Below, one piece after another: positions 13,707 to 58,409 of a stretch of 64,000 bases of DNA. The notes beneath the pieces are model-generated. The model searched no databases, was not told the DNA's origin, and worked only from the letters and a program-made list of their open reading frames with translations. Within the stretch, counting starts at the first letter, position 1. Every line of letters starts with the position of its first letter. The translations under genes were made by a program, and so were the position numbers. Origin of the DNA: Escherichia coli (GTDB lineage: Bacteria > Pseudomonadota > Gammaproteobacteria > Enterobacterales > Enterobacteriaceae); the NCBI RefSeq assembly GCF_003334765.1, contig NZ_QOWT01000003.1, one strand, 5' to 3'.

Positions 13707-15482
13707 TTAACGCTTGTACAACGGACCGTAGTTCTGGCAAGCGCGGTAATCCTGGCCTTCAATATCCATGCCGTGCGCAGCCCAGGCAGAAGGACGATAC
13801 ACTTTGGTCTCTTCAACGTTGTGCATACATACCGGGATACGCAGCATGGAGGCGAGAGTGATAAAGTCTGCGCCAACGTGGCCGATGGTCAGAACCCCAT
13901 GGTTAGCGCCCCAGTTCGCCATTACCGAGTACACATCCGTAAACGGCCCTTTACCGGTGAGGCGCGGTGCAAACCAGGTGGTTGGCCAGGTTGAGTTGGT
14001 GCGTTTGTTGAGGATGTCATGCACATCCTTCGGCAATTCCACGCTCCAGCCTTCCGCGATTTGCAGTACCGGTCCCAGGCCTTTGATGATGTTGACACGA
14101 GTCATGGTGAACGGGACGCCGCCTTCGGTAAGGAAGCGGGAAGAGTAACCGCCGCCACGGAAGTATTCGTGGATCGCCGGGCACCATTCGGTAGCGGCGA
14201 GGCAAGCGTCAGCCTCTTGCTGAGAGATTTCCCAGTGTGGCTTCATCGTCGGGTTACCTTCGCTGTCGCGTTGTTTACAGGAACCGTCCAGCGCAGCAGA
14301 ACCGGAGTTGATCAAATGGATGATGCCGTGTTCTGCCAGTCCATCCAGTTTATGCCCCGTTACACGCTCAATTGCTTCTGGTGACCAGTAGGTACGCACA
14401 TCGGCAAATACCTGAGCGGTGCCGGTGAGCTGGTGACCCATTAGCATTGCCACGCCGTTAAGACTGTCGTTTTCGGTCGCCACGACAAAGGGTTCGCGCA
14501 CGCCATTCCAGTCAAATGAACTGTTGAGGATCGCTTCGGCGGTGTCACCATTGGGATATTGATCGGTCCAGTGACGTTGCCCCTGGAAGCCCGCAGCGAT
14601 GGCGTTGTAGCCAAGTGATTCTTCCACGCGACCAATATCGGCCAGTTTGCTGTTGCCTTGCATCATGTCGCGGATACACATCGCCATCAGTAAACTTTCG
14701 CGCAGAACTGCGCGGCTTTGCTCGGCATTACGTTGATACTGTTTGTTATTTTCATCTTCGCCATAGCGGAAGTTTTTATCAGCCCAGGCCAGTGCCATTT
14801 CCAATTCGGCTTCGTCGTAAATCTTCTGATCGATACGGCGACGCAGTTCGGTCATATCCACCGCCTGGACTTTCATTCCCAGCCAGGATTCAAAGAAGTT
14901 GTGATCAACAATGGAACCGGCGATACCCATCGAAACGCCGCCCAGCGACAGATAGCTTTTACCTTTCATGCTGGCGACGGCCAAACCGGCGCGGGCAAAG
15001 CGCAGCAGTTTTTCTTCAACATCGGCAGGAATCGATGTGTCATCGGCATCCTGAACGTCATGACCGTAAATGGAGAATGCTGGGATGCCTTTCTGGCTGT
15101 GAGCTGCCAGAGCCGCTGCCAGGTAAACAGCGCCGGGGCGTTCAGTGCCGTTAAAGCCCCAAATGGCCTTCGGGCGGGTTGGATCCATGTCGATGGTTTC
15201 ACTGCCATAGCACCAGCAAGGCGTTACCGTAATGGTGAGGCCTACATTCTGACTGCTGAATTTTTCTTCGCAAGCAGCGGCTTCAGCCATACCCGCGATA
15301 CAGGTATCGGAAATGACACACTCGACGGCAGCTCCGCAGGCATGGCGCAGTTTCTCGGTCAGCAGTGCGGCCGTAGCTTTCGCCATATTCATTGTTTGTT
15401 CTTCAAGCGACTCACGAACACCCATGCGACGACCGTCAATAACCGGGCGGATACCAATTTTCGGTAAGCTGATTTTTTTCAT
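13707..15482 (-). CDS. fucI: L-fucose isomerase
   Basis: 591-aa ORF starting [19 protein letters not shown]; matches FucI. Confidence 0.95.
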
Positions 15483-46658: not shown

Positions 46659-47053
46659 GTGTTCCCCGCGCCAGCGGGGATAAACCGGCAAAAACCGGGC
46701 AATCGCAAAAAGGCGTAATGTGTTCCCCGCGCCAGCGGGGATAAACCTGTGTTTGCGGCATTAACGCTCACCAGCATTTCGTGTTCCCCGCGCCAGCGGG
46801 GATAAACCGACGTGGTCATGGGTGCTGCTGTTGCAGAGCCAGTGTTCCCCGCGCCAGCGGGGATAAACCGAGCAGATACACGGCTTTGTATTCCGTGCGC
46901 CCGTGTTCCCCGCGCCAGCGGGGATAAACCGAATAGCAATAGTCCATAGATTTGCGAAAACAGGTGTTCCCCGCGCCAGCGGGGATAAACCGGAGCCTGA
47001 CGAGACTACTGAGGCCGTTCTGTCGAGTTCCCCGCGCCAGCGGGGATAAACCA
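46659..47053 (+). CRISPR. Type I-E CRISPR array, 7 repeats and 6 spacers, no cas genes in window
   Basis: 29-bp repeat GTGTTCCCCGCGCCAGCGGGGATAAACCG starting at 46659, 46720, 46781, 46842, 46903, 46964 and 47025 (exact 61-bp period, 32-bp spacers); the last repeat is degenerate (GAG..., final base A). Positions cross-checked against ORF-track frames that translate the repeats. Confidence 0.97.
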
Positions 47054-47691: not shown

Positions 47692-49170
47692 TTACGCATT
47701 CGACCAGCTCTGGATCGAATCCACATTCCCCAATTCCCCATGCATCACTTCATACGATTTTTTCAGGATCACATCAGTATGTTTGGTTAGGTCTTTGAAA
47801 ATGCCTTTATTCATCGCGTCGTAGCGTTTGGCATTGCTCTCAATCGGTATAAAGATATCTTTCACGCGAACCATGTTATCGACAGCCGTTGCGTAATCCG
47901 GGTATAGCCCCAGACCTACCGCTGTATTAATCGCTGCCCCCAGGCTTGCACAACCGTTAATGGCGTTACGTCGTGCCGGAAGGTTGAACACGTCGGCAAA
48001 AATCTGCATAAACAGATCGCTGTTCGAACCGCCGCCAGTAATGATCACATGCTTCGCAAAGTGATTCATTTCATTACACATATTGTCGTAATTGTTCTTC
48101 AGCGTCAGCGCCACGCTTTCCAGTATCGAACGATATATCCATGCGTAATCCATGCTGGAATCAAAGCCGATCATAATCCCGCGTTTGTACGGTTCCCACG
48201 GATTGGTCAGCCAGTCCAGCACCGTCATCAGACCATTACAGCCTGGCGGCACACAAGAAGCTTTTTTGTTGAGTAAATCTTCCGGTGAAAGATCCTGCGC
48301 CCTGGCATCCTGAATTAACGACTCGCCTAGCATGTCGCGCAGCCAGCTCACCGTCCACATGCCTTTGCGAATACCGTAACCTTCATACAGCAATGTTTGC
48401 GGAATAGAAGACATAATCGGCCAGTACGCTACTGGATCTTTCGGCAGTGCTTTGCCGTTCATCATCAATGCGATGTAAGTGCCAAGAGAAATTACCGCCG
48501 TTTCATCATCCAGTAATCCGGCCCCCAGAGCTTCTACCGGTTTATCACTGGTGGTACAAACAACCGGCAGTCCTGCCGGGAAATGTGTCGCCAGTGCGGC
48601 TTGTGGTGTGATATGTCCGAGGACGGTGCCAGGCATTTGCACATCAAACAGCATATGACGGGGGATATTAAACTTATCCATTACCGCAGCATCTTCGCTC
48701 CATGCCCAGCTCTTATAATCCACCGGCCACTGACCAAAATAGTTGGCGATATTGTCTTTAAACTCGCCGGTTAAGCGATGCGTCAGATAACCCGAAAAAG
48801 AGGTGACATATGCCACGTCAGGGTTAGTGTGTTCGTAAGGGCGTGTAACGCGTGCATCCTGCCAGCTAATCAACGGCGCAGCAGGCGTGCCATCGGCTTT
48901 CAATAACGCACGGCAGCAACGGATGGATCCCAGACCAATACCGACAATATCTTCTTTATTCCCGGCAAACTGACTCATCAAATCGTGACCGGCAAAACAT
49001 AATGATGCCCATAAATCGTCGTCAGGATGTTCTGCAGTATCGGCATCTGGCGTGTGCATCGGCTGTAATAAGCCTTTGCCTTCGCAAACCACGTTACCTT
49101 CCAGATCGTACATCACCACTTTTGTGCTCTGACTTCCGCCATCAATCCCTATGATGTATTTTTTCGACAT
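47692..49170 (-). CDS. ygcE: FGGY-family sugar kinase (substrate unknown)
   Basis: 492-aa ORF with the FGGY N-terminus MSKKYIIGIDGGSQSTKVVMYD; matches YgcE. Confidence 0.88.
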   Translation of the reverse strand: MSKKYIIGIDGGSQSTKVVMYDLEGNVVCEGKGLLQPMHTPDADTAEHPDDDLWASLCFAGHDLMSQFAGNKEDIVGIGLGSIRCCRALLKADGTPAAPLISWQDARVTRPYEHTNPDVAYVTSFSGYLTHRLTGEFKDNIANYFGQWPVDYKSWAWSEDAAVMDKFNIPRHMLFDVQMPGTVLGHITPQAALATHFPAGLPVVCTTSDKPVEALGAGLLDDETAVISLGTYIALMMNGKALPKDPVAYWPIMSSIPQTLLYEGYGIRKGMWTVSWLRDMLGESLIQDARAQDLSPEDLLNKKASCVPPGCNGLMTVLDWLTNPWEPYKRGIMIGFDSSMDYAWIYRSILESVALTLKNNYDNMCNEMNHFAKHVIITGGGSNSDLFMQIFADVFNLPARRNAINGCASLGAAINTAVGLGLYPDYATAVDNMVRVKDIFIPIESNAKRYDAMNKGIFKDLTKHTDVILKKSYEVMHGELGNVDSIQSWSNA

Positions 49171-49196
49171 GATTTTTCTCCTGTAATTTTCCTGGC

Positions 49197-50474
49197 TTAC
49201 TTGCTGCTAGCCATTGCGGGGGCGCTATCAGCAGTACGAATTTTTTGGAACAGCAAAAAGGTAAAGACAATCACCATGCCAAGCGCCGCCATGCCCATCA
49301 GCCACATATTGCGGTAGGCTTCTGCAGCGGGCAGGGTGTCTTGCCAGTGGCCGATAATTGGGTAAACGAAGACATCCGGCAGGAATCCAATCACCGAACA
49401 AATACCTACCGTGGTGCCCATAATGTAAGACGGTGTTCTCGCTTCGCCAGGGCAGGCCCAGTACAGCCCGCGTGAGGCGTAACAGGTGAATCCCAGCAGT
49501 AAAATCAGGCCAATCCCCATCGCGACCGATTGCGGGTTAGAGTTCGTGACGAGCAGGGCAGTTAACGTCAGCAGGCCGAGTACGGAAAGGATTTGGATCA
49601 CGCGGGTAGGGGATTTCACTTTGCTGTAGGTGGTGATTATGCCGCCAAGTGGGCCGCACAGCGCGCGGAATATTTTGTTGATCACAATCCCCATGTAGCT
49701 CGCCGCCACCAGCGACATGCCATACATTTCGGTCAGATAGTTGGTGGAGTAACTCAGAATGGCGTAGATGGTGAAGACGCCAAAAATCACCATGCTGCAA
49801 TACCAGGTGGTGCTGATACGCAAAACGGCCAGGATGTCGCTAAGCTGGAATGACTGTTTTTCTTCGTTATTGGCACTGCGCAGGTTGTTGTTATCGCTAA
49901 CAAAAAACCAGCACAGAATCCCCAACAAGATGTAAACCACACTATAGATGATAATGACCGTTTTCAGGCTGGTGCTGTCATCCGGTGCAAAGCGAGAAAA
50001 GACCCACATGGTAAACACCGCCAGCGACATTACACCGACGCCGCGCAGCCCTTCCATCCAGCCCATAATTTTCCCTTGCTCGCTATGATCGCCAAGCAAC
50101 GATGCAGCTTTAATCGACACCGACCACAGCATTAAAATCGTCGTTATCGCAAAGGCGATCTGAATACAGAGCATTACCCACAGCGGTGGATACGTTGCCA
50201 TTAACAGACCCAGTAATCCGGTAATGATCATCGCGGAAGTAATCATTTTGCGGTGTGAAAATTTATCGGCAATAACGCCGCTGGGGGCATAAAGAATAAT
50301 GGCCGCAATACCAAAGGTACTCATTATTAAACCTATCTCGGTATTGCTGAATCCCATAAATTTCGCCATGGGAATTTGATAAATATAACGTAAATAAGCC
50401 AGGTCGAAACTAACGCCGCCGCTAAAACTAATTATCGCGAGGGTTATCCAACGGCGATATGAGTTGTGTTGCAT
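49197..50474 (-). CDS. yqcE: MFS transporter (substrate unknown)
   Basis: 425-aa polytopic membrane ORF; matches YqcE; co-oriented with ygcE. Confidence 0.85.
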   Translation of the reverse strand: MQHNSYRRWITLAIISFSGGVSFDLAYLRYIYQIPMAKFMGFSNTEIGLIMSTFGIAAIILYAPSGVIADKFSHRKMITSAMIITGLLGLLMATYPPLWVMLCIQIAFAITTILMLWSVSIKAASLLGDHSEQGKIMGWMEGLRGVGVMSLAVFTMWVFSRFAPDDSTSLKTVIIIYSVVYILLGILCWFFVSDNNNLRSANNEEKQSFQLSDILAVLRISTTWYCSMVIFGVFTIYAILSYSTNYLTEMYGMSLVAASYMGIVINKIFRALCGPLGGIITTYSKVKSPTRVIQILSVLGLLTLTALLVTNSNPQSVAMGIGLILLLGFTCYASRGLYWACPGEARTPSYIMGTTVGICSVIGFLPDVFVYPIIGHWQDTLPAAEAYRNMWLMGMAALGMVIVFTFLLFQKIRTADSAPAMASSK

Positions 50475-50653
50475 ATCGTATTCCCATTTGTAATAGACAA
50501 AAAAAAGAGAAAAGTAAGCCGCCCTTTCAGGTGGATTACTTTTCTCAGGTCTCTAGTAATTGAAATAATAAATAACATGGAAAGCAGAGGTGTTGTGTGA
50601 GAGTAATCACGCTTCTGCTTTTTAAAATTATTTGACAATACGAATATCACACT

Positions 50654-50669
50654 GTGATTACGATCACAT
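50654..50669. promoter_or_regulatory. Consensus CRP site in the yqcE/ygcW divergent region
   Basis: TGTGAttacgaTCACA, a perfect TGTGA-N6-TCACA. Coordinates approximate. Confidence 0.6.
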
Positions 50670-50720
50670 TAGCAGTTATGCCCTTATGCTAAAAATTATC
50701 TCCAGTTACCAGAGATAATG

Positions 50721-50768
50721 AGAAAGGTAACTTCCCTCTCGCGGGGGAAGTTACCTTTCTTTTTTTTT
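50721..50768 (+). terminator. Strong intrinsic terminator hairpin in the ygcW 5' leader (candidate attenuator)
   Basis: agaaaggtaacttccc-tctcgcgg-gggaagttacctttct, a perfect 16-bp stem, followed by about 9 T; ends about 25 nt before the ygcW ATG; no upstream + strand gene to terminate. Confidence 0.7.
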
Positions 50769-50792
50769 GCCTTACGGAAATTGGAGCTAACT

Positions 50793-51578
50793 ATGTCAAT
50801 CGAATCTCTCAATGCGTTCTCAATGGATTTTTTCTCCCTGAAAGGTAAAACCGCAATTGTTACCGGTGGGAATAGCGGTTTAGGCCAGGCATTTGCCATG
50901 GCGTTGGCCAAAGCTGGCGCAAATATCTTTATTCCTAGTTTCGTCAAAGATAACGGCGAAACAAAGGAAATGATTGAAAAACAGGGTGTTGAGGTGGACT
51001 TCATGCAGGTGGATATCACCGCAGAAGGCGCGCCGCAGAAGATTATCGCTGCTTGCTGTGAGCGTTTCGGTACAGTTGATATTCTGGTTAACAATGCCGG
51101 TATTTGTAAGCTGAATAAGGTGCTGGACTTCGGTCGTGCCGACTGGGATCCGATGATTGATGTGAACCTGACCGCCGCATTCGAGTTAAGCTATGAAGCT
51201 GCAAAAATTATGATCCCGCAGAAAAGCGGCAAAATTATTAATATCTGTTCATTGTTCTCTTACTTAGGTGGACAATGGTCACCTGCATATTCTGCCACTA
51301 AACATGCTCTTGCCGGGTTCACCAAAGCTTATTGTGATGAACTAGGTCAATATAATATTCAGGTAAATGGTATCGCCCCTGGCTATTATGCAACAGATAT
51401 TACGCTGGCGACACGCAGTAATCCAGAAACCAATCAGCGCGTTCTTGATCATATTCCGGCAAACCGTTGGGGCGATACTCAGGATTTAATGGGCGCAGCC
51501 GTATTCCTCGCAAGTCCGGCATCGAATTATGTCAACGGGCATTTATTAGTGGTTGATGGCGGTTATTTAGTGCGCTAA
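50793..51578 (+). CDS. ygcW: Short-chain dehydrogenase/reductase (KduD-like)
   Basis: ORF-track frame 50718..51578; the 261-aa product starts at the ATG at 50793 (MSIESLNAF...), with Rossmann motif TGGNSGLG and catalytic YxxxK. Confidence 0.88.
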   Translation: MSIESLNAFSMDFFSLKGKTAIVTGGNSGLGQAFAMALAKAGANIFIPSFVKDNGETKEMIEKQGVEVDFMQVDITAEGAPQKIIAACCERFGTVDILVNNAGICKLNKVLDFGRADWDPMIDVNLTAAFELSYEAAKIMIPQKSGKIINICSLFSYLGGQWSPAYSATKHALAGFTKAYCDELGQYNIQVNGIAPGYYATDITLATRSNPETNQRVLDHIPANRWGDTQDLMGAAVFLASPASNYVNGHLLVVDGGYLVR

Positions 51579-51647
51579 CCCATAACGGTGGTTTCTGTTT
51601 TCTCTTATTAATGATTATTCCATTTTTATTATCAGGAAGGAATTACT

Positions 51648-53102
51648 ATGTCTTTATCTCGCGCAGCGATTGTCGACCAGCTAAAGGAAATTGTTGGTGC
51701 AGATCGCGTAATTACCGATGAAACAGTATTAAAGAAAAACAGTATTGACCGTTTTCGTAAATTTCCGGATATTCATGGCATTTATACTTTGCCGATTCCG
51801 GCAGCGGTCGTAAAACTCGGTTCCACAGAGCAAGTATCCCGTGTGCTGAATTTTATGAATGCGCACAAAATTAACGGTGTGCCGCGTACCGGTGCTTCCG
51901 CCACCGAAGGTGGGCTGGAAACTGTTGTAGAAAACTCGGTGGTGCTCGACGGCTCCGCCATGAATCAAATCATTAATATTGATATTGAGAATATGCAGGC
52001 GACGGCGCAATGTGGTGTTCCGCTGGAAGTGCTGGAAAACGCGTTGCGTGAAAAAGGTTACACCACGGGGCATTCTCCGCAGTCAAAGCCGCTGGCGCAG
52101 ATGGGCGGCCTGGTAGCAACCCGAAGTATCGGGCAGTTCTCCACACTCTACGGCGCAATCGAAGATATGGTCGTTGGTCTGGAAGCAGTATTGGCTGATG
52201 GCACCGTCACACGCATTAAAAACGTGCCACGCCGCGCGGCTGGCCCGGACATTCGTCACATCATCATCGGCAACGAAGGTGCATTGTGCTATATCACTGA
52301 AGTAACAGTGAAAATCTTTAAATTCACCCCGGAAAACAACCTCTTCTACGGCTATATCCTGGAAGACATGAAAACCGGCTTCAACATCCTGCGTGAAATC
52401 ATGGTGGAAGGGTATCGTCCGTCAATCGCTCGTTTGTATGACGCTGAAGATGGCACCCAACACTTCACCCATTTTGCCGACGGAAAATGCGTGCTGATCT
52501 TTATGGCTGAAGGTAACCCTCGCATTGCGAAGGTGACGGGCGAAGGGATTGCGGAAATCGTTGCCCGCTACCCGCAATGCCAGCGCGTGGACAGCAAGCT
52601 GATCGAAACCTGGTTTAACAACCTGAACTGGGGACCGGATAAAGTGGCTGCCGAACGTGTGCAGATCCTCAAAACCGGCAACATGGGCTTTACCACCGAA
52701 GTATCCGGCTGCTGGAGCTGCATCCACGAAATCTACGAAAGCGTTATTAACCGTATTCGTACTGAGTTCCCGCACGCCGACGACATCACCATGCTGGGCG
52801 GTCATTCCTCTCATAGCTATCAGAACGGCACCAACATGTACTTCGTCTACGATTACAACGTCGTTGACTGTAAGCCGGAAGAGGAAATCGACAAGTACCA
52901 CAATCCGCTCAACAAGATCATCTGTGAAGAAACCATTCGCCTCGGCGGTTCGATGGTGCACCACCACGGTATCGGTAAACATCGCGTTCACTGGAGCAAA
53001 CTGGAACACGGCAGCGCGTGGGCGTTGCTGGAAGGGCTGAAAAAGCAGTTCGATCCTAATGGCATTATGAATACGGGTACTATCTATCCGATTGAAAAAT
53101 AA
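51648..53102 (+). CDS. ygcU: FAD-linked oxidoreductase (FAD-binding PCMH type)
   Basis: 484-aa ORF matching YgcU. Confidence 0.85.
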   Translation: MSLSRAAIVDQLKEIVGADRVITDETVLKKNSIDRFRKFPDIHGIYTLPIPAAVVKLGSTEQVSRVLNFMNAHKINGVPRTGASATEGGLETVVENSVVLDGSAMNQIINIDIENMQATAQCGVPLEVLENALREKGYTTGHSPQSKPLAQMGGLVATRSIGQFSTLYGAIEDMVVGLEAVLADGTVTRIKNVPRRAAGPDIRHIIIGNEGALCYITEVTVKIFKFTPENNLFYGYILEDMKTGFNILREIMVEGYRPSIARLYDAEDGTQHFTHFADGKCVLIFMAEGNPRIAKVTGEGIAEIVARYPQCQRVDSKLIETWFNNLNWGPDKVAAERVQILKTGNMGFTTEVSGCWSCIHEIYESVINRIRTEFPHADDITMLGGHSSHSYQNGTNMYFVYDYNVVDCKPEEEIDKYHNPLNKIICEETIRLGGSMVHHHGIGKHRVHWSKLEHGSAWALLEGLKKQFDPNGIMNTGTIYPIEK

Positions 53103-53195
53103 TGTGTCAGGCAGCGTTCCGCGATGACGGGGCGTTGCCTTTTCGGCTTCTCAGGCGAGAAGCCGTTCTTATTACCGGACAATGAAGGGGTAAAG

Positions 53196-54533
53196 ATGAA
53201 CACTTCACCGGTGCGAATGGATGATTTACCGCTTAACCGTTTTCACTGCCGCATTGCTGCGCTCACTTTCGGCGCACACCTGACCGACGGTTATGTTCTC
53301 GGCGTCATTGGTTACGCCATTATTCAGCTTACGCCCGCCATGCAACTGACGCCGTTTATGGCGGGAATGATCGGCGGCTCGGCGCTCCTTGGTTTGTTCC
53401 TTGGCAGCCTGGTTCTTGGGTGGATCTCCGACCATATTGGTCGGCAAAAAATCTTCACCTTCAGCTTTTTGCTGATTACGCTTGCTTCGTTTTTACAATT
53501 TTTTGCCACCACGCCAGAGCATCTTATTGGACTGCGCATTTTGATTGGCATTGGTCTGGGAGGCGATTATTCAGTAGGTCACACCTTGCTGGCTGAATTT
53601 TCCCCGCGCCGCCATCGCGGTATTTTGCTGGGCGCATTCAGCGTGGTGTGGACCGTAGGCTATGTGCTGGCAAGTATTGCCGGACATCACTTTATTTCCG
53701 AAAACCCGGAGGCCTGGCGCTGGCTACTGGCATCGGCAGCTCTGCCCGCGTTGTTGATTACGTTATTACGCTGGGGAACGCCAGAATCACCACGCTGGCT
53801 ACTGCGCCAGGGGCGTTTTGCAGAAGCTCACGCTATCGTGCATCGCTATTTTGGTCCCCATGTTTTACTGGGCGATGAAGTGGTAACGGCGACCCATAAA
53901 CACATCAAAACCTTGTTCTCTTCGCGTTACTGGCGGCGCACGGCGTTTAACAGCGTCTTCTTTGTCTGCCTCGTAATCCCATGGTTTGTGATTTATACCT
54001 GGCTGCCAACTATCGCCCAGACTATTGGTCTGGAAGATGCGCTGACTGCCAGCCTGATGCTTAATGCGTTGTTAATTGTGGGCGCGCTGCTGGGATTAGT
54101 TCTGACGCACCTGCTGGCACATCGCAAATTTTTGCTGGGAAGTTTTTTGCTGCTGGCGGCAACGCTGGTAGTCATGGCCTGTTTGCCTTCCGGCAGTTCA
54201 TTAACGCTGCTGCTTTTTGTTCTCTTCAGCACCACCATTTCGGCAGTCAGTAATCTGGTGGGCATTTTGCCTGCGGAAAGTTTTCCTACTGACATTCGCT
54301 CGCTGGGCGTCGGTTTTGCCACTGCCATGAGTCGACTTGGCGCGGCGGTAAGTACTGGCCTGCTGCCGTGGGTGCTGGCGCAGTGGGGAATGCAAGTCAC
54401 CTTATTGCTCCTGGCGACAGTGTTGTTGGTTGGTTTTGTTGTGACCTGGCTATGGGCACCAGAAACTAAAGCCCTCCCGCTGGTGGCGGCGGGAAATGTA
54501 GGAGGTGCGAATGAACATTCTGTTAGCGTTTAA
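53196..54533 (+). CDS. ygcS: MFS sugar-porter-family transporter
   Basis: ORF-track frame 53124..54533; the 445-aa product starts at the ATG at 53196 (MNTSPVRMDDLPLNRFH...). Confidence 0.85.
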   Translation: MNTSPVRMDDLPLNRFHCRIAALTFGAHLTDGYVLGVIGYAIIQLTPAMQLTPFMAGMIGGSALLGLFLGSLVLGWISDHIGRQKIFTFSFLLITLASFLQFFATTPEHLIGLRILIGIGLGGDYSVGHTLLAEFSPRRHRGILLGAFSVVWTVGYVLASIAGHHFISENPEAWRWLLASAALPALLITLLRWGTPESPRWLLRQGRFAEAHAIVHRYFGPHVLLGDEVVTATHKHIKTLFSSRYWRRTAFNSVFFVCLVIPWFVIYTWLPTIAQTIGLEDALTASLMLNALLIVGALLGLVLTHLLAHRKFLLGSFLLLAATLVVMACLPSGSSLTLLLFVLFSTTISAVSNLVGILPAESFPTDIRSLGVGFATAMSRLGAAVSTGLLPWVLAQWGMQVTLLLLATVLLVGFVVTWLWAPETKALPLVAAGNVGGANEHSVSV

Positions 54534-55290
54534 AGCCGAACCGGATGCCGGAATGCTGGCGGAAAAAGAGTGGCAGGCGGCGGCTCAGGGTAAAAGCGGA
54601 CCGGATATTTCGCTACTGCGAAGTTTACTCGGTGCTGATGAACAGGCCGCTGCCGCGCTGCTGTTGGCGCAGAGAAAAAACGGTACGCCGATGTCTTTAA
54701 CCGCGTTGAGCATGGGGGATGAACGGGCATTGCACTGGCTGCGCTATCTCATGGCTCTTGGGTTTGAGGAAGCTGTATTGCTGGAGACGGCGGCAGATCT
54801 GCGCTTTGCGCCGGAATTTGTCGCTCGCCATATTGCCGAATGGCAGCATCAGAATCCGCTGGATCTGATAATTACCGGCTGCCAAAGCAGCGAAGGGCAG
54901 AATGGGCAAACGCCATTTTTGCTGGCGGAAATGCTGGGCTGGCCCTGCTTCACCCAGGTGGAGCGTTTCACTCTCGACGCGCTGTTTATCACCCTCGAAC
55001 AGCGTACTGAACATGGGTTGCGTTGTTGCCGGGTTCGCTTGCCTGCGGTGATTGCCGTGCGTCAGTGCGGTGAAGTGGCCTTGCCAGTACCGGGAATGCG
55101 CCAGCGAATGGCTGCGGGGAAAGCAGAAATTATCCGTAAAACTGTTGCTGCCGAAATGCCAGCGATGCAGTGTCTGCAACTGGCAAGAGCAGAGCAACGA
55201 CGCGGAGCGACGCTGATTGATGGGCAAACGGTAGCAGAAAAAGCTCAAAAGCTATGGCAGGACTATTTACGCCAAAGGATGCAGCCATGA
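54511..55290 (+). CDS. ygcR: Electron-transfer-flavoprotein beta-subunit-like protein
   Basis: ORF-track frame 54505..55290 (GTG); the ATG at 54511 is preceded by GGAGG; matches YgcR; overlaps the ygcS 3' end. Confidence 0.85.
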   Translation: MNILLAFKAEPDAGMLAEKEWQAAAQGKSGPDISLLRSLLGADEQAAAALLLAQRKNGTPMSLTALSMGDERALHWLRYLMALGFEEAVLLETAADLRFAPEFVARHIAEWQHQNPLDLIITGCQSSEGQNGQTPFLLAEMLGWPCFTQVERFTLDALFITLEQRTEHGLRCCRVRLPAVIAVRQCGEVALPVPGMRQRMAAGKAEIIRKTVAAEMPAMQCLQLARAEQRRGATLIDGQTVAEKAQKLWQDYLRQRMQP

Positions 55291-56147
55291 ATATCGCAAT
55301 TGTGACAATAAATCAGGAGAATGCCGCAATAGCAAGCTGGCTGGCGGCGCAGGATTTCAGCGGTTGTACCCTGGCGCACTGGCAGATTGAACCTCAGCCT
55401 GTAGTGGCGGAACAGGTGCTGGATGCGTTGGTGGAACAGTGGCAGCGAACGCCTGCGGACGTTGTTCTCTTTCCGCCGGGAACGTTTGGCGATGAACTGT
55501 CGACCCGGCTGGCCTGGCGTTTACATGGTGCAAGCATCTGCCAGGTGACTTCGTTAGATATTCCAACCGTAAGCGTGCGCAAATCCCACTGGGGAAATGC
55601 GCTAACGGCGACGCTGCAAACAGAAAAACGCCCGCTATGCCTTTCCCTGGCGCGTCAGGCGGGAGCAGCGAAAAACGCCACGTTGCCCTCTGGAATGCAA
55701 CAACTGAACATTGTCCCGGGTGCGCTTCCGGACTGGCTGGTTAGCACAGAGGATCTGAAAAATGTTACCCGCGACCCATTAGCTGAGGCCAGACGGGTGC
55801 TGGTGGTGGGGCAGGGCGGAGAGGCAGATAACCAGGAAATCGCTATGCTGGCAGAAAAGCTGGGAGCCGAAGTGGGCTACAGTCGGGCGCGAGTGATGAA
55901 CGGTGGCGTTGATGCTGAAAAAGTGATTGGTATTTCCGGACATCTGCTGGCACCTGAGGTGTGTATTGTTGTTGGCGCTTCTGGCGCAGCAGCGTTAATG
56001 GCGGGCGTACGCAATAGCAAGTTTGTGGTGGCGATTAATCATGACGCCAGCGCTGCGGTATTTTCACAGGCAGATGTTGGCGTGGTTGATGACTGGAAAG
56101 TGGTGCTGGAGGCACTGGTGACAAACATTCACGCAGATTGCCAATAA
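55287..56147 (+). CDS. ygcQ: Electron-transfer-flavoprotein alpha-subunit-like protein
   Basis: ORF-track frame 55254..56147; ATG at 55287 (MNIAIVTINQ...) overlaps the ygcR stop (ATGA). Confidence 0.85.
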   Translation: MNIAIVTINQENAAIASWLAAQDFSGCTLAHWQIEPQPVVAEQVLDALVEQWQRTPADVVLFPPGTFGDELSTRLAWRLHGASICQVTSLDIPTVSVRKSHWGNALTATLQTEKRPLCLSLARQAGAAKNATLPSGMQQLNIVPGALPDWLVSTEDLKNVTRDPLAEARRVLVVGQGGEADNQEIAMLAEKLGAEVGYSRARVMNGGVDAEKVIGISGHLLAPEVCIVVGASGAAALMAGVRNSKFVVAINHDASAAVFSQADVGVVDDWKVVLEALVTNIHADCQ

Positions 56148-56153
56148 CGTGTT

Positions 56154-56260
56154 GCCGGATGATCCTGCCTACGGTTCTGGCCTGGGGACTTGTAGGCCTG
56201 ATAAGACGCGTCAAGCGTCGCATCAGGCGCTGAATGTCGGATGTGGCGTGCGGCCTACAA
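56154..56260. repeat. REP/BIME cluster (about 3 REP units)
   Basis: gccggatgatcctgcctacgg / tgtaggcctgataagacgcgtcaagcgtcgcatcaggcgc / gtcggatgtggcgtgcggcctacaa between convergent ygcQ and ygcP. Coordinates approximate. Confidence 0.8.
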
Positions 56261-56294
56261 ATCAAACCAAATTCAATTGGTTACGATTATCCCG

Positions 56295-56870
56295 TCAAAG
56301 TAATTTTTTCGCTAACGTCCAGACCCCGGTATTCGTGGTGGAAAGCGCCACGACACCCGCGTTAATCGCATTACGCGCATCTTCTTCATCGCACACCAGC
56401 CCACCGGCAATCAGCGGTTGGCGGATTTTCTCTGTCACCCAGCCCAGCACTTTGGGCATACAGCCTGGCAGGATCTCAATACAATCCGGATTCGATTGCG
56501 CAACTTGCTTATCAATGTTGTGAAACGAAATTGAATCAACAATAAACAGGCGATGAATACAGAAAAAACCTTCCGCTCTTGCCGCTTTCAACATTGAGGC
56601 TTTGGTACTGATAATGCCGTCCGCCTCGGTCACCAGTTTCAAAAACTGAATAACGACTTCTTTATTTGACGCGCCTTCCAGCAAATCAACATGAATAAAA
56701 GCATATTTCCCGGCGTTCTTAATCTTTTTAACGATATTACTGATGGTGCAGATATTGCCGTACAACACGGAAATAAATTGGCATTCAGAATCGATTGCCA
56801 GTTGCAGGCTGGCATTATCTTTAACGGCAGCAATCACCGGATTCTGGCGGAGCAGGTGTAAGAGGGGCAT
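56295..56870 (-). CDS. ygcP: GlpP-family (glycerol-3-phosphate-responsive antiterminator-like) regulator
   Basis: 191-aa ORF matching YgcP. Confidence 0.85.
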   Translation of the reverse strand: MPLLHLLRQNPVIAAVKDNASLQLAIDSECQFISVLYGNICTISNIVKKIKNAGKYAFIHVDLLEGASNKEVVIQFLKLVTEADGIISTKASMLKAARAEGFFCIHRLFIVDSISFHNIDKQVAQSNPDCIEILPGCMPKVLGWVTEKIRQPLIAGGLVCDEEDARNAINAGVVALSTTNTGVWTLAKKLL

Positions 56871-57147: not shown

Positions 57148-58409
57148 CGCAGACTCCTGATAACATCGCCCGCCAGATGCCACAGGCCGTGACGACGTAA
57201 ATGATGCCAGAATAACTGGCGCAGCGGTGGAACAGGTTTATCACCCTGATCCCATAAATCGCGGGAAATATCCTGCATTAACGCAGGCCACGTACGGTAC
57301 CATCCCGGGCGTTGCAAAAGCGCCGGAACATGCTGATAACGCTGTAGAACATCCCACAGCAGGCTGCGCTCTACGTTGTGATGATAAAGCGGAAACAGAT
57401 TTTGCGGCTCGCGGTGCTGGCAGGCGCTTATCAGCGTTTGTGCCGCCGCCTGCGCGCCAGTCAGCGCCATATCCATGCCGCGCACGGAAATTCCGGTATT
57501 GACGCAACTGCGCAACGCATCGCCCACCAGCAGCCAGCCGTTACCGGCGTATTGCACCGGCATACTGTGCAAGCCACCTTCTGGCACCAGATGCGCACCA
57601 TACTCCAGTGATTCCGTGTTTTTGATAAGCGGGCGCACTGCCGGATGCGCTTTAAAGCGAGTCAGCAGCTCGCTTGCCGGAACACGACTTTGCGTAAGGG
57701 AAGAGAGCGGGCAAACAATCCCTAACGAGAGCGTTTGTTGATTAGTATAAAGAAATGCGCCGCCGGGTAAGTCATCACAGATCCTGCCGCTGAACAGCAA
57801 CGCTGCGCCTTCGTTATTCTCCAGATGAAAACGTTCTTCAATAGCGGATGTTTCCAGCGACAGCACTTCTTTGATCCCCAACGCCATCGCTTCGCCAGCA
57901 GGACGAGCCACTAACCCGTGACGTTCAGCCAGGACGCTGTTGGCACCTTCTGCCAGCACCACATAACGGGCGCGGAGAATATCGTCACCACAAATAACGC
58001 CACAGACTCTGCCGTTTTCTTCATACAGTGCATCCACCGTCGCTCCGGGGATGCATTCGACACCTTCTTTTTCGGCTTCGGCAACCAGCCACGGATCGAA
58101 TCGTGCACGTAATACACTCCAGGATTCACCGCCGGGCTGTAAGCTGGAAAACGTCGTTACGCCATCGGGCGTTAACAGGGAAAGGCTTTCGTGAGTGATG
58201 CGTCGTTCAAGAGGCGCGGTCAGATGAAATTGCGGGAGGAGTTCCGCGAGTGCATGGGTATATAACCGCCCGCCGGAAAGATTTTTGCTGCCGGGGATTT
58301 CAGCGCGTTCCAGTAACAAAACGGATAAACCCGCTCGCGCGCAGCGTAACGCGCAAGCGGTGCCTGCAATACCGGCACCAATAATAATAATGTCGCAGTC
58401 GTCTTCCAT
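57138..58409 (-). CDS. ygcN: FAD-dependent oxidoreductase (ETF-QO / FixC-like)
   Basis: ORF-track frame 57138..58439; the 423-aa product starts at the ATG at 58409 (MEDDCDIIIIGAGIAGTACA, FAD GxGxxG). Confidence 0.85.
   Translation of the reverse strand: MEDDCDIIIIGAGIAGTACALRCARAGLSVLLLERAEIPGSKNLSGGRLYTHALAELLPQFHLTAPLERRITHESLSLLTPDGVTTFSSLQPGGESWSVLRARFDPWLVAEAEKEGVECIPGATVDALYEENGRVCGVICGDDILRARYVVLAEGANSVLAERHGLVARPAGEAMALGIKEVLSLETSAIEERFHLENNEGAALLFSGRICDDLPGGAFLYTNQQTLSLGIVCPLSSLTQSRVPASELLTRFKAHPAVRPLIKNTESLEYGAHLVPEGGLHSMPVQYAGNGWLLVGDALRSCVNTGISVRGMDMALTGAQAAAQTLISACQHREPQNLFPLYHHNVERSLLWDVLQRYQHVPALLQRPGWYRTWPALMQDISRDLWDQGDKPVPPLRQLFWHHLRRHGLWHLAGDVIRSLRCL

Follow-up and report, generated by a model that had tools for sequence, protein, structure and literature searches.

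The yqcE/ygcW intergenic region of Escherichia coli raises the question of what a strong intrinsic terminator does immediately in front of a start codon. The region lies in a stretch of 64,000 nucleotides (contig NZ_QOWT01000003.1), called the window here, and is flanked by the divergent genes yqcE (minus strand, ATG at 50474) and ygcW (plus strand, ATG at 50793). The 501 bases around its hairpins recur at 98-100% identity in 5,043 of 5,426 complete E. coli genomes. A first-pass annotation of the DNA had proposed a catabolite-activated, antitermination-controlled ygcWUSRQ operon. This proposal is supported by published RNA 3' ends, a conserved competing helix termed P1, the linkage of ygcP, the layout seen in the glpD leader of Bacillus subtilis and a conserved, predicted class II spacing of CRP sites. 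It needs widening, as yqcE-ygcE has the same device and its own CRP-like site. The region holds two attenuators, and ygcWUSRQ and yqcE-ygcE are probably controlled by CRP activation and YgcP-dependent antitermination. Within this reading, we infer where transcription starts, that YgcP is the factor, in which direction it acts and what its ligand is. The genes concerned are the following.

50793..56147, plus strand: ygcW-ygcU-ygcS-ygcR-ygcQ, proposed controlled operon (RefSeq annotation of an identical locus; NCBIfam matches)
47692..50474, minus strand: yqcE-ygcE, proposed controlled operon of an MFS transporter and an FGGY-family carbohydrate kinase (RefSeq annotation; NCBIfam)
56295..56870, minus strand: ygcP, proposed antiterminator with domain PF04309, last gene of ygcN-ygcO-ygcP (RefSeq, Pfam)

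The cluster runs in the order ygcE-yqcE (minus), ygcW-ygcU-ygcS-ygcR-ygcQ (plus) and ygcP-ygcO-ygcN (minus). The products of the ygcW operon are, in order, a short-chain dehydrogenase/reductase (SDR) oxidoreductase, an FAD oxidase, an MFS transporter and the beta and alpha subunits of an electron transfer flavoprotein (ETF).

The perfect 16-bp stem described earlier for the ygcW leader, AGAAAGGTAACTTCCC / GGGAAGTTACCTTTCT, is present and extends to 19 pairs closed by a 4-nt loop. Nine T follow at 50760-50768, and the ygcW ATG begins 24 nt past the T run, in line with the first description; the Shine-Dalgarno sequence of ygcW is GGAG at 50783-50786. The 126-nt leader folds with -46.1 kcal/mol (z = -5.9), which none of 200 shuffles equals, and the hairpin is the top terminator-like site of 12.5 kb scanned. 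It had also been noted that no co-directional gene lies upstream, and this holds: yqcE, the gene on that side, is transcribed divergently, so there is no operon for the hairpin to end.

50720..50768, plus strand: ygcW leader intrinsic terminator, 19-bp hairpin at 50720-50761 with U tract at 50760-50768 (sequence, fold, Term-seq)

A second terminator-like site is located on the minus strand in the yqcE leader, where GAGAAAAGUAAUCCACCUGAAAGGGCGGCUUACUUUUCUC is followed by eight U, from 50546 down to 50499. Its fold has z = -2.85, and about 25 nt separate its end from the yqcE ATG. GAGAAARGUAA opens both stems. With two terminators that share a stem start, one in each leader, the attenuator device is therefore duplicated, one copy per divergent operon. 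The first-pass annotation missed this twin in the yqcE leader. It also overlooked a CRP-like site at 50596-50611 and the antiterminator element that is conserved on the 5' side of both hairpins.

50499..50546, minus strand: yqcE leader intrinsic terminator, hairpin at 50546-50507 with U tract at 50506-50499 (fold, Term-seq)

In published Term-seq data of strain MG1655, each of the two hairpins coincides with an RNA 3' end. Adams et al. (2021, eLife; PMC7815308) list these ends in their supplementary tables at K-12 positions 2900311(-) and 2900556(+), which are 245 nt apart and were placed in the window with the help of the printed sequence, which runs 10 nt past the end. The first corresponds to window position 50755(+), 38 nt before the ygcW ATG, with 40,640 reads, and the second to 50510(-), 36 nt before the yqcE ATG, with 1,557 reads. 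The intrinsic-terminator scores are 15.8 for the ygcW leader and 11.4 for the yqcE leader, where a score of >3 suggests intrinsic termination, and Rho dependence is given as 'No' for both (PMC7815308). Term-seq had been suggested as a check for a short terminated leader transcript, and the published end at 50755, intrinsic and not Rho-dependent, answers it: the hairpins act as leader terminators in vivo. Each coordinate occurs once in the tables, in rows with Rho scores. Because Rho scores exist only for the LB OD 0.4 dataset of that study (PMC7815308), neither end is listed for glucose minimal medium; the listing in LB at OD 0.4 alone fits CRP dependence weakly. Both peaks are classed as 'orphan', and the genes concerned go unmentioned in the main text (PMC7815308).

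The sequence 5' of each hairpin contains a conserved 31-nt element. With YgcP as bait, 64 loci were collected, one genome per species. The Enterobacterales loci include Escherichia, Citrobacter, Klebsiella, Enterobacter, Serratia, Rahnella, Pantoea, Erwinia, Budvicia and others, and the Firmicute loci come from Listeria grandensis and relatives, a Bacillus and a Thalassobacillus. A hairpin-plus-T-run scan combined with motif scans yielded 98 distinct element sequences in 58 loci; Enterobacterales loci have two copies each, Firmicute loci one or two. In the roughly 50 Enterobacterales genomes and in the Firmicute loci with the element, it is always found near a ygcP-like gene and directly before ygc structural genes. 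Five of the 64 loci are without it, owing to short flanks or to a contig end close to the gene, and a further locus (L065) shows only a doubtful variant.

The anatomy of the element is constant: a 6-nt RUURCY strand, a loop of 14-18 nt with the pattern (A/C)GAG-N3-4-GAGA(A/U)A, and the 6-nt complement of the first strand, which together form the helix P1. The 3' strand of P1 and the preceding GAGAAA are at the same time the base of the terminator 5' arm. P1 and the terminator are therefore mutually exclusive. In the ygcW leader, the last 6 nt of the P1 loop belong to this shared base. The yqcE element consists of the P1 5' strand AUUACU (50560-50555), the loop AGAGACCUGAGAAA (50554-50541) and the P1 3' strand AGUAAU (50540-50535), and both end pairs of its P1 are compensatorily changed relative to the ygcW P1.

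50705..50710, plus strand: P1 5' strand of the ygcW leader, GUUACC (covariance model; pairing counts)
50711..50725, plus strand: P1 loop AGAGAUAAUGAGAAA with tandem GAGA 8 nt apart, candidate YgcP-binding site (invariant columns)
50726..50731, plus strand: P1 3' strand of the ygcW leader, GGUAAC, shared with the terminator 5' arm (pairing counts, folds)
50535..50560, minus strand: yqcE leader antiterminator element (covariance-model match at 50562-50533)

Sixty distinct elements share the invariant columns G10 A11 G12 and G18 A19 G20 A21. The strands of P1 vary in a coordinated manner: GUUACU/AGUAAC occurs 34 times, AUUACU/AGUAAU 27 times, GUUACC/GGURAC 22 times and GUUACU/AGUAGC 5 times, GUUGCU/AGCGAC or GUUGCC/GGCGAC is found in 4 elements, and a single mismatch appears in only 6 of the 98. 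Pairing was counted on a MAFFT alignment (49 sequences) and on a model-guided alignment (59 distinct sequences). The MAFFT alignment A1, in which a loop insertion of 3-4 nt is misplaced in 13 sequences, was excluded from the counts, and A2 and the model-guided A4 were used. P1 is paired in 98% of cells, with changes on both sides at 3 of its 6 pairs (G-C/A-U, A-U/G-C, U-A/C-G). None of 500 shuffles reaches the observed values, and a slid partner pairs in 16-63%. On these alignments, the covariation support for P1 is solid, though short of overwhelming. In the terminator stem, 6 of 15 pairs also covary. An alternative helix that is conserved, overlaps the terminator 5' arm and carries compensatory changes is the hallmark of a regulated attenuator and not of a plain terminator. 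Together with the 3' end in vivo, it bears out the earlier view of the ygcW hairpin as a leader attenuator.

This conservation decides against a simpler view, in which the hairpins are chance inverted repeats or ordinary or bidirectional terminators without a regulatory role. Such a view could draw on the partial symmetry of the stems (GAGAAARGTAA ... TTACYTTTCTC) and on the Limnobaculum eriocheiris locus (L032), which has a single hairpin with A and T runs and no P1. However, neither hairpin has a gene ending upstream of it, the shuffled sequences all fold less well, and conservation and covariation extend over about 58 loci in two phyla. Already contradicted by conservation and position, this explanation is highly improbable. 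The L. eriocheiris region (13875-13962 of its locus) is a curiosity of its own: its one symmetric hairpin is of the ygc type and has an A run and a T run at its flanks, and P1, the loop element and the promoters are missing. In a relative (L034), the usual divergent pair is present and its hairpins are identical, and the L. eriocheiris arrangement looks like a collapsed or rearranged regulatory region.

The two short RNAs might also be stand-alone small RNAs ending at constitutive terminators, with ygcW and yqcE expressed from elsewhere. The terminated RNAs do accumulate to the read numbers given above and carry the 'orphan' label of the source. On the other hand, the roughly 25 nt between U tract and start codon, which contain the Shine-Dalgarno sequence, leave no room for a promoter. 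The element is always placed directly before ygc structural genes, even in Firmicutes with a different gene order, and a conserved P1 has no role in a constitutive terminator. We regard this alternative as very unlikely.

A covariance model of the 31-nt element, R1, finds exactly two matches in the window, at 50703-50733(+) with 48.6 bits (E 1.4e-11) and at 50562-50533(-) with 44.1 bits (E 3e-10). In 1.29 Mb of related loci, it gives 101 matches, with a maximum of two per locus. Rfam 15 shows no match in the intergenic region at E values up to 1, and no RefSeq feature lies under the element in 5,064 genomes.

Two further features lie close to the element. A leader peptide starting from the ATG at 50718, in the ygcW frame, was considered and rejected: this ATG falls within the conserved motif and has no Shine-Dalgarno sequence, and other loci read CUGAGAAA or AAGAGAAA at this place, not ATG. 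The same ATG (50718-50720) opens a mechanical open reading frame of 286 amino acids through the terminator, which is probably meaningless and could mislead gene callers. A small inverted repeat at 50696-50719, ATTATCTC...GAGATAAT, spans the predicted ygcW start site and is not conserved in other genera.

Folding calculations describe how the two structures could compete. The nascent 5' end of 31-33 nt folds as P1, with -6.7 kcal/mol for ygcW and -1.4 kcal/mol for yqcE. The full leaders fold as terminators, with -34.2 kcal/mol (ygcW) and -22.3 kcal/mol (yqcE), compared to -15.6 and -6.5 kcal/mol, respectively, for their best P1-compatible folds. These computed energies fit a default-off switch.

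The promoter regions of both leaders are built alike. The first-pass annotation reported a consensus CRP site upstream of the ygcW hairpin; TGTGATTACGATCACA is indeed a perfect consensus, 52 bp before the hairpin, and its position is 50653-50668, one base to the left of the original placement. This site was already predicted in 2007 (PMC1794230), is bound in vivo as a ChIP-seq target in enterotoxigenic E. coli (PMC4287617) and shows a Kd of about 1.7 nM in in vitro footprint-seq (PMC12871828). A CRP-like site on the other side of the region corresponds to yqcE, and a published analysis of expression data inferred that CRP activates yqcE-ygcE (PMC8085971).

50653..50668, no strand assigned: CRP site 1, TGTGATTACGATCACA, centre 50660.5, predicted class II for the ygcW promoter (sequence; ChIP-seq; footprinting)
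50596..50611, no strand assigned: CRP-like site 2, minus-strand CGTGATTACTCTCACA, 9 of 10 consensus bases, centre 50603.5, predicted class II for yqcE (sequence, conservation)
50687..50695, plus strand: predicted extended -10 of the ygcW promoter, TGcTAAAAA (sequence, conserved block)
50569..50577, minus strand: predicted extended -10 of the yqcE promoter, TGtTATTTA (sequence, conserved block)

Every Enterobacterales element is accompanied by a separate CRP-like site that matches 8-10 of 10 consensus bases and has its center 43.5-45.5 nt before the first P1 base; for CRP site 1, this distance is 44.5 nt in nearly all Enterobacterales loci. The spacing between CRP site and P1 is kept despite intergenic lengths of 125 to 333 bp, and each of these elements has an extended -10 of the form TGnTA... 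at the same distance across genera. With this geometry, the promoters would be of class II, with CRP at -41.5, and transcription would start at about 50702-50704(+) and 50562-50561(-), which is 2-3 nt before P1 in both leaders. Firmicute elements feature ordinary -35/-10 promoters at an equally short distance.

The candidate reader of the element is encoded in the same cluster, at a distance of 5.5 kb from the leaders (given earlier as about 6 kb). YgcP was correctly assigned to the GlpP family: PF04309 (G3P_antiterm) is found on YgcP and all of its relatives, and RefSeq names the protein 'glycerol-3-phosphate responsive antiterminator'. YgcP matches GlpP of Listeria monocytogenes (PDB 3KTS) with an E value of 1.2e-27 and also matches TM1436 (1VKF). 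The Firmicute YgcP-like proteins share 54-59% identity with YgcP. Listeria grandensis has genes for proteins of both types, a canonical GlpP and a YgcP-like one; its YgcP-like copy is 56% identical to YgcP, and the match of YgcP to L. monocytogenes GlpP is far weaker. Such a pair is consistent with paralogous systems that differ in RNA specificity. In L. monocytogenes, no glp genes adjoin the glpP locus, which is uninformative. Among the genes of the E. coli cluster, no CAT or PRD antiterminator protein is present, and the PF04309 protein is the only regulator.

The linkage of ygcP to the element is kept in 58 loci of two phyla. The locus of Bacillus sp. DNRA2 has the complete gene set of E. 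coli, with genes for a YgcU-like FAD oxidase, ETF subunits, a YgcW-like SDR, a YqcE-like MFS transporter and a YgcE-like kinase, together with a YgcP-like gene and two elements, both of them immediately in front of a structural operon. The regulator, the RNA element and the genes it would control therefore travel together across phyla. The loci of Listeria, Bacillus and Thalassobacillus (L056-L063) have the ygc cluster, the regulator and the leader element in common with Enterobacterales, and the sequences suggest horizontal transfer of operons together with their RNA switch. The shared switch is combined with different promoters, of the sigma-A type in Firmicutes and of a predicted class II CRP type in enterobacteria.

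A protein-independent riboswitch, or an element read by a factor other than YgcP with which ygcP merely shares a cluster, is quite unlikely in view of this linkage. A highly conserved sequence and an alternative helix overlapping the terminator are features that riboswitches have too, and YgcP is a proposed reader. Against this, the conserved part measures 31 nt and has no structure beyond a single 6-bp helix with its purine-rich loop, which is less than known ligand pockets require. It matches no Rfam family, the layout follows that of a leader which requires GlpP, and the regulator gene is kept beside the element across phyla.

The proposed mechanism of CRP-activated, YgcP-dependent antitermination has several steps. 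Two divergent promoters in the yqcE/ygcW intergenic region would be activated by CRP-cAMP, each with an attenuator right after it. Transcripts would begin 2-3 nt before P1 (GUUACC/GGUAAC for ygcW, AUUACU/AGUAAU for yqcE), which would enclose a loop of 14-15 nt with GAGA-N3-4-GAGA. By default, the far more stable terminator would win and a leader RNA of about 55-65 nt would be released, as in the LB cultures. In the presence of the inducer, ligand-charged YgcP would attach to the nascent RNA at P1 and its GAGA loop and withhold the terminator 5' arm, followed by read-through of RNA polymerase into ygcWUSRQ and yqcE-ygcE. If glycerol-3-phosphate and GlpK in the case of GlpP are a guide, the inducer would probably be a phosphorylated sugar or polyol that the YgcE kinase produces.

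The attenuators may be real with YgcP acting in another way, by promoting termination or mainly by stabilizing the 5' end of the mRNA. This variant is unlikely, although several points speak for it. In both phyla, the predicted transcript has the element at its very 5' end, P1 forms first on the nascent RNA, and Glatz et al. (1996) announce in their title a dual role of B. subtilis GlpP in antitermination and glpD mRNA stability. In contrast, LB cultures show termination as the default state, and the 3' ends are strong there. Any P1-compatible fold is 16-19 kcal/mol less stable than the terminator, so no protein is needed to cause termination, and the sole characterized member of the family is a positive regulator.

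Several observations weigh against antitermination by YgcP as proposed here. The supplements of the Cappable-seq and SMRT-Cappable-seq studies have no entries at these coordinates or genes, and the starts are predictions. The 3' ends from Term-seq map 3-6 nt within the 3' arms of the stems, beside their A-U-rich base and not in the U tract, which we infer to be the result of 3' trimming. The compensatory changes in P1 probably amount to about 4-5 independent events, as many of the sequences are closely related. GAGA-N3-4-GAGA alone occurs at chance frequency, with 3 cases found versus 2 expected in the window. There is no third element before ygcNOP, judged by a scan of the queD-ygcN spacer and the maximum of two R1 matches per locus. 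R1 gives no match on canonical glp leaders either, and the likeness to them is one of layout and short motifs. In the searchable literature, no experiment was found that ties YgcP to the ygcW or yqcE leader RNAs.

The first-pass annotation knew of no description of this control, and none was found in the searchable literature, which also contains no paper on the function of YgcP, on PF04309 relatives outside glp or on the ygc cluster. CRP site 1, the homology-based name of YgcP and the two Term-seq peaks are already public. What is new is how these pieces connect, along with the twin attenuator, the CRP-like site in front of yqcE and the covarying antiterminator element. The attenuators account for two unremarked 'orphan' Term-seq peaks, and YgcP, annotated as an antiterminator by homology alone, gains two proposed RNA targets with base-level anatomy. 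For the ten-gene catabolic cluster of K-12 (yqcE-ygcE, ygcWUSRQ, ygcNOP), a ygcW or yqcE leader-reporter fusion is expected to respond only to the true inducer and offers a handle on the substrate. If confirmed, this would be the first GlpP-type antitermination found described outside Firmicutes. The comparison of about 100 elements gives an explicit RNA model for the GlpP family (helix, tandem GAGA loop, overlap with the terminator 5' arm), which was not found in the searchable literature.

A more speculative extension, to which we give little credence, is that the terminated leader RNAs (about 55 nt for ygcW, with its yqcE twin) act in trans and that the helix-closed, 5'-terminal GAGA-N3-4-GAGA is a code used across PF04309 proteins. 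If so, the leader RNAs would be decoys that titrate YgcP, setting an induction threshold and coupling the operons, or small RNAs that pair via the GAGA-rich loop with other transcripts, and the code would let paralogues in one genome, as in Listeria grandensis, tell their own leaders apart.

The surroundings of the two operons show some additional features. A Rho-dependent Term-seq 3' end at K-12 position 2892741(+), window position 58325 (minus), lies 84 nt into ygcN, the ATG of which is at 58409 (PMC7815308, supplement). As ygcN heads the operon that ygcP closes, this internal termination could limit the supply of YgcP. Between the convergent genes ygcQ and ygcP, a repetitive extragenic palindromic (REP)-like unit is found at 56195-56268 (minus), with a weak, sub-threshold match to Rfam naRNA4 (34 bits versus a gathering score of 59.5). 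Between queE and ygcE, at about 46781-46932 plus flanks of the window, there is a CRISPR array, whose repeat GTGTTCCCCGCGCCAGCGGGGATAAACCG is of type I-E; no cas genes adjoin it in this stretch, a near-identical genome is annotated with CRISPR there, and several Term-seq 3' ends fall inside it.

Among known leader systems, the glp leaders of Firmicutes are closest to the ygc leaders. The 5' untranslated region (UTR) of B. subtilis glpD makes unrelated constitutive promoters glycerol-inducible, and deletion of glpP abolishes induction (PMC9604022, Table S4). This UTR starts with AGUUAAUA and reads AGUUAAUAAGAAC-GGUC-CUGAGAUGAGGAGA-GACC-ACAGC..., in which GGUC and GACC can pair, the loop contains GAGA-N4-GAGA, and the second GAGA and GACC form the base of the terminator 5' arm. 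The same ygc-like plan of a helix-closed GAGA-N4-GAGA loop overlapping a terminator arm is found in the leaders of the canonical glpP-glpF-glpK-glpD loci compared here, from Priestia, Bacillus, Lysinibacillus and Paenibacillus. The B. subtilis glp system, in which GlpP antiterminates in the glpD, glpFK and glpTQ leaders, further shares with ygc a PF04309 regulator, an intrinsic terminator in the leader, an AGUUA start and a catabolic operon target including an FGGY kinase. The ygc element, (CC)AGUUACC-AGAGAUAAUGAGAAA-GGUAAC, reads as a compact version of the glp plan. Its P1 is formed by the 5'-terminal GUUAC itself, without a spacer, unlike in the glp leaders. Homology between the ygc element and canonical glp leaders at the level of the model was considered and dropped; because R1 has no matches there, only a shared layout is claimed. 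Nearly all canonical glp leaders examined (L066, L069, L070, L071 and B. subtilis glpD) start with AAGUUAAUA right after the -10, and one starts with AAGUUCAUA. This 5'-terminal block resembles the AGUUAC start of the ygc element, and no discussion of it was found in the glp papers examined.

The ygc system differs from B. subtilis glp in its Gram-negative host and in its targets, an SDR, an FAD oxidase, ETF subunits and MFS transporters compared to glpF, glpK and glpD. The ygc promoters are of a predicted class II CRP type, in contrast to sigma-A promoters with CcpA for glp. YgcP-like proteins form a branch separate from GlpP, and the ligand of YgcP need not be glycerol-3-phosphate, the effector of GlpP.

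The ribonucleic antiterminator (RAT) systems of BglG, SacY and LicT, as in E. coli bgl and B. subtilis sacB, follow the same logic: a weak antiterminator hairpin overlaps the terminator 5' arm, and a sugar-responsive RNA-binding protein stabilizes it and controls a catabolic operon. They differ from ygc in their CAT-PRD proteins, which do not belong to PF04309, in the sequence and structure of the RAT, and in control by the phosphotransferase system, of which ygc gives no sign. HutP, TRAP and PyrR also resemble the ygc system in their use of repeated short purine-rich motifs near the terminator or antiterminator strands, with an oligomeric reader likely. These proteins are unrelated to YgcP, and the ygc leaders have only two repeats, enclosed by a helix. 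TRAP and PyrR promote termination, whereas the ygc system most likely prevents it.

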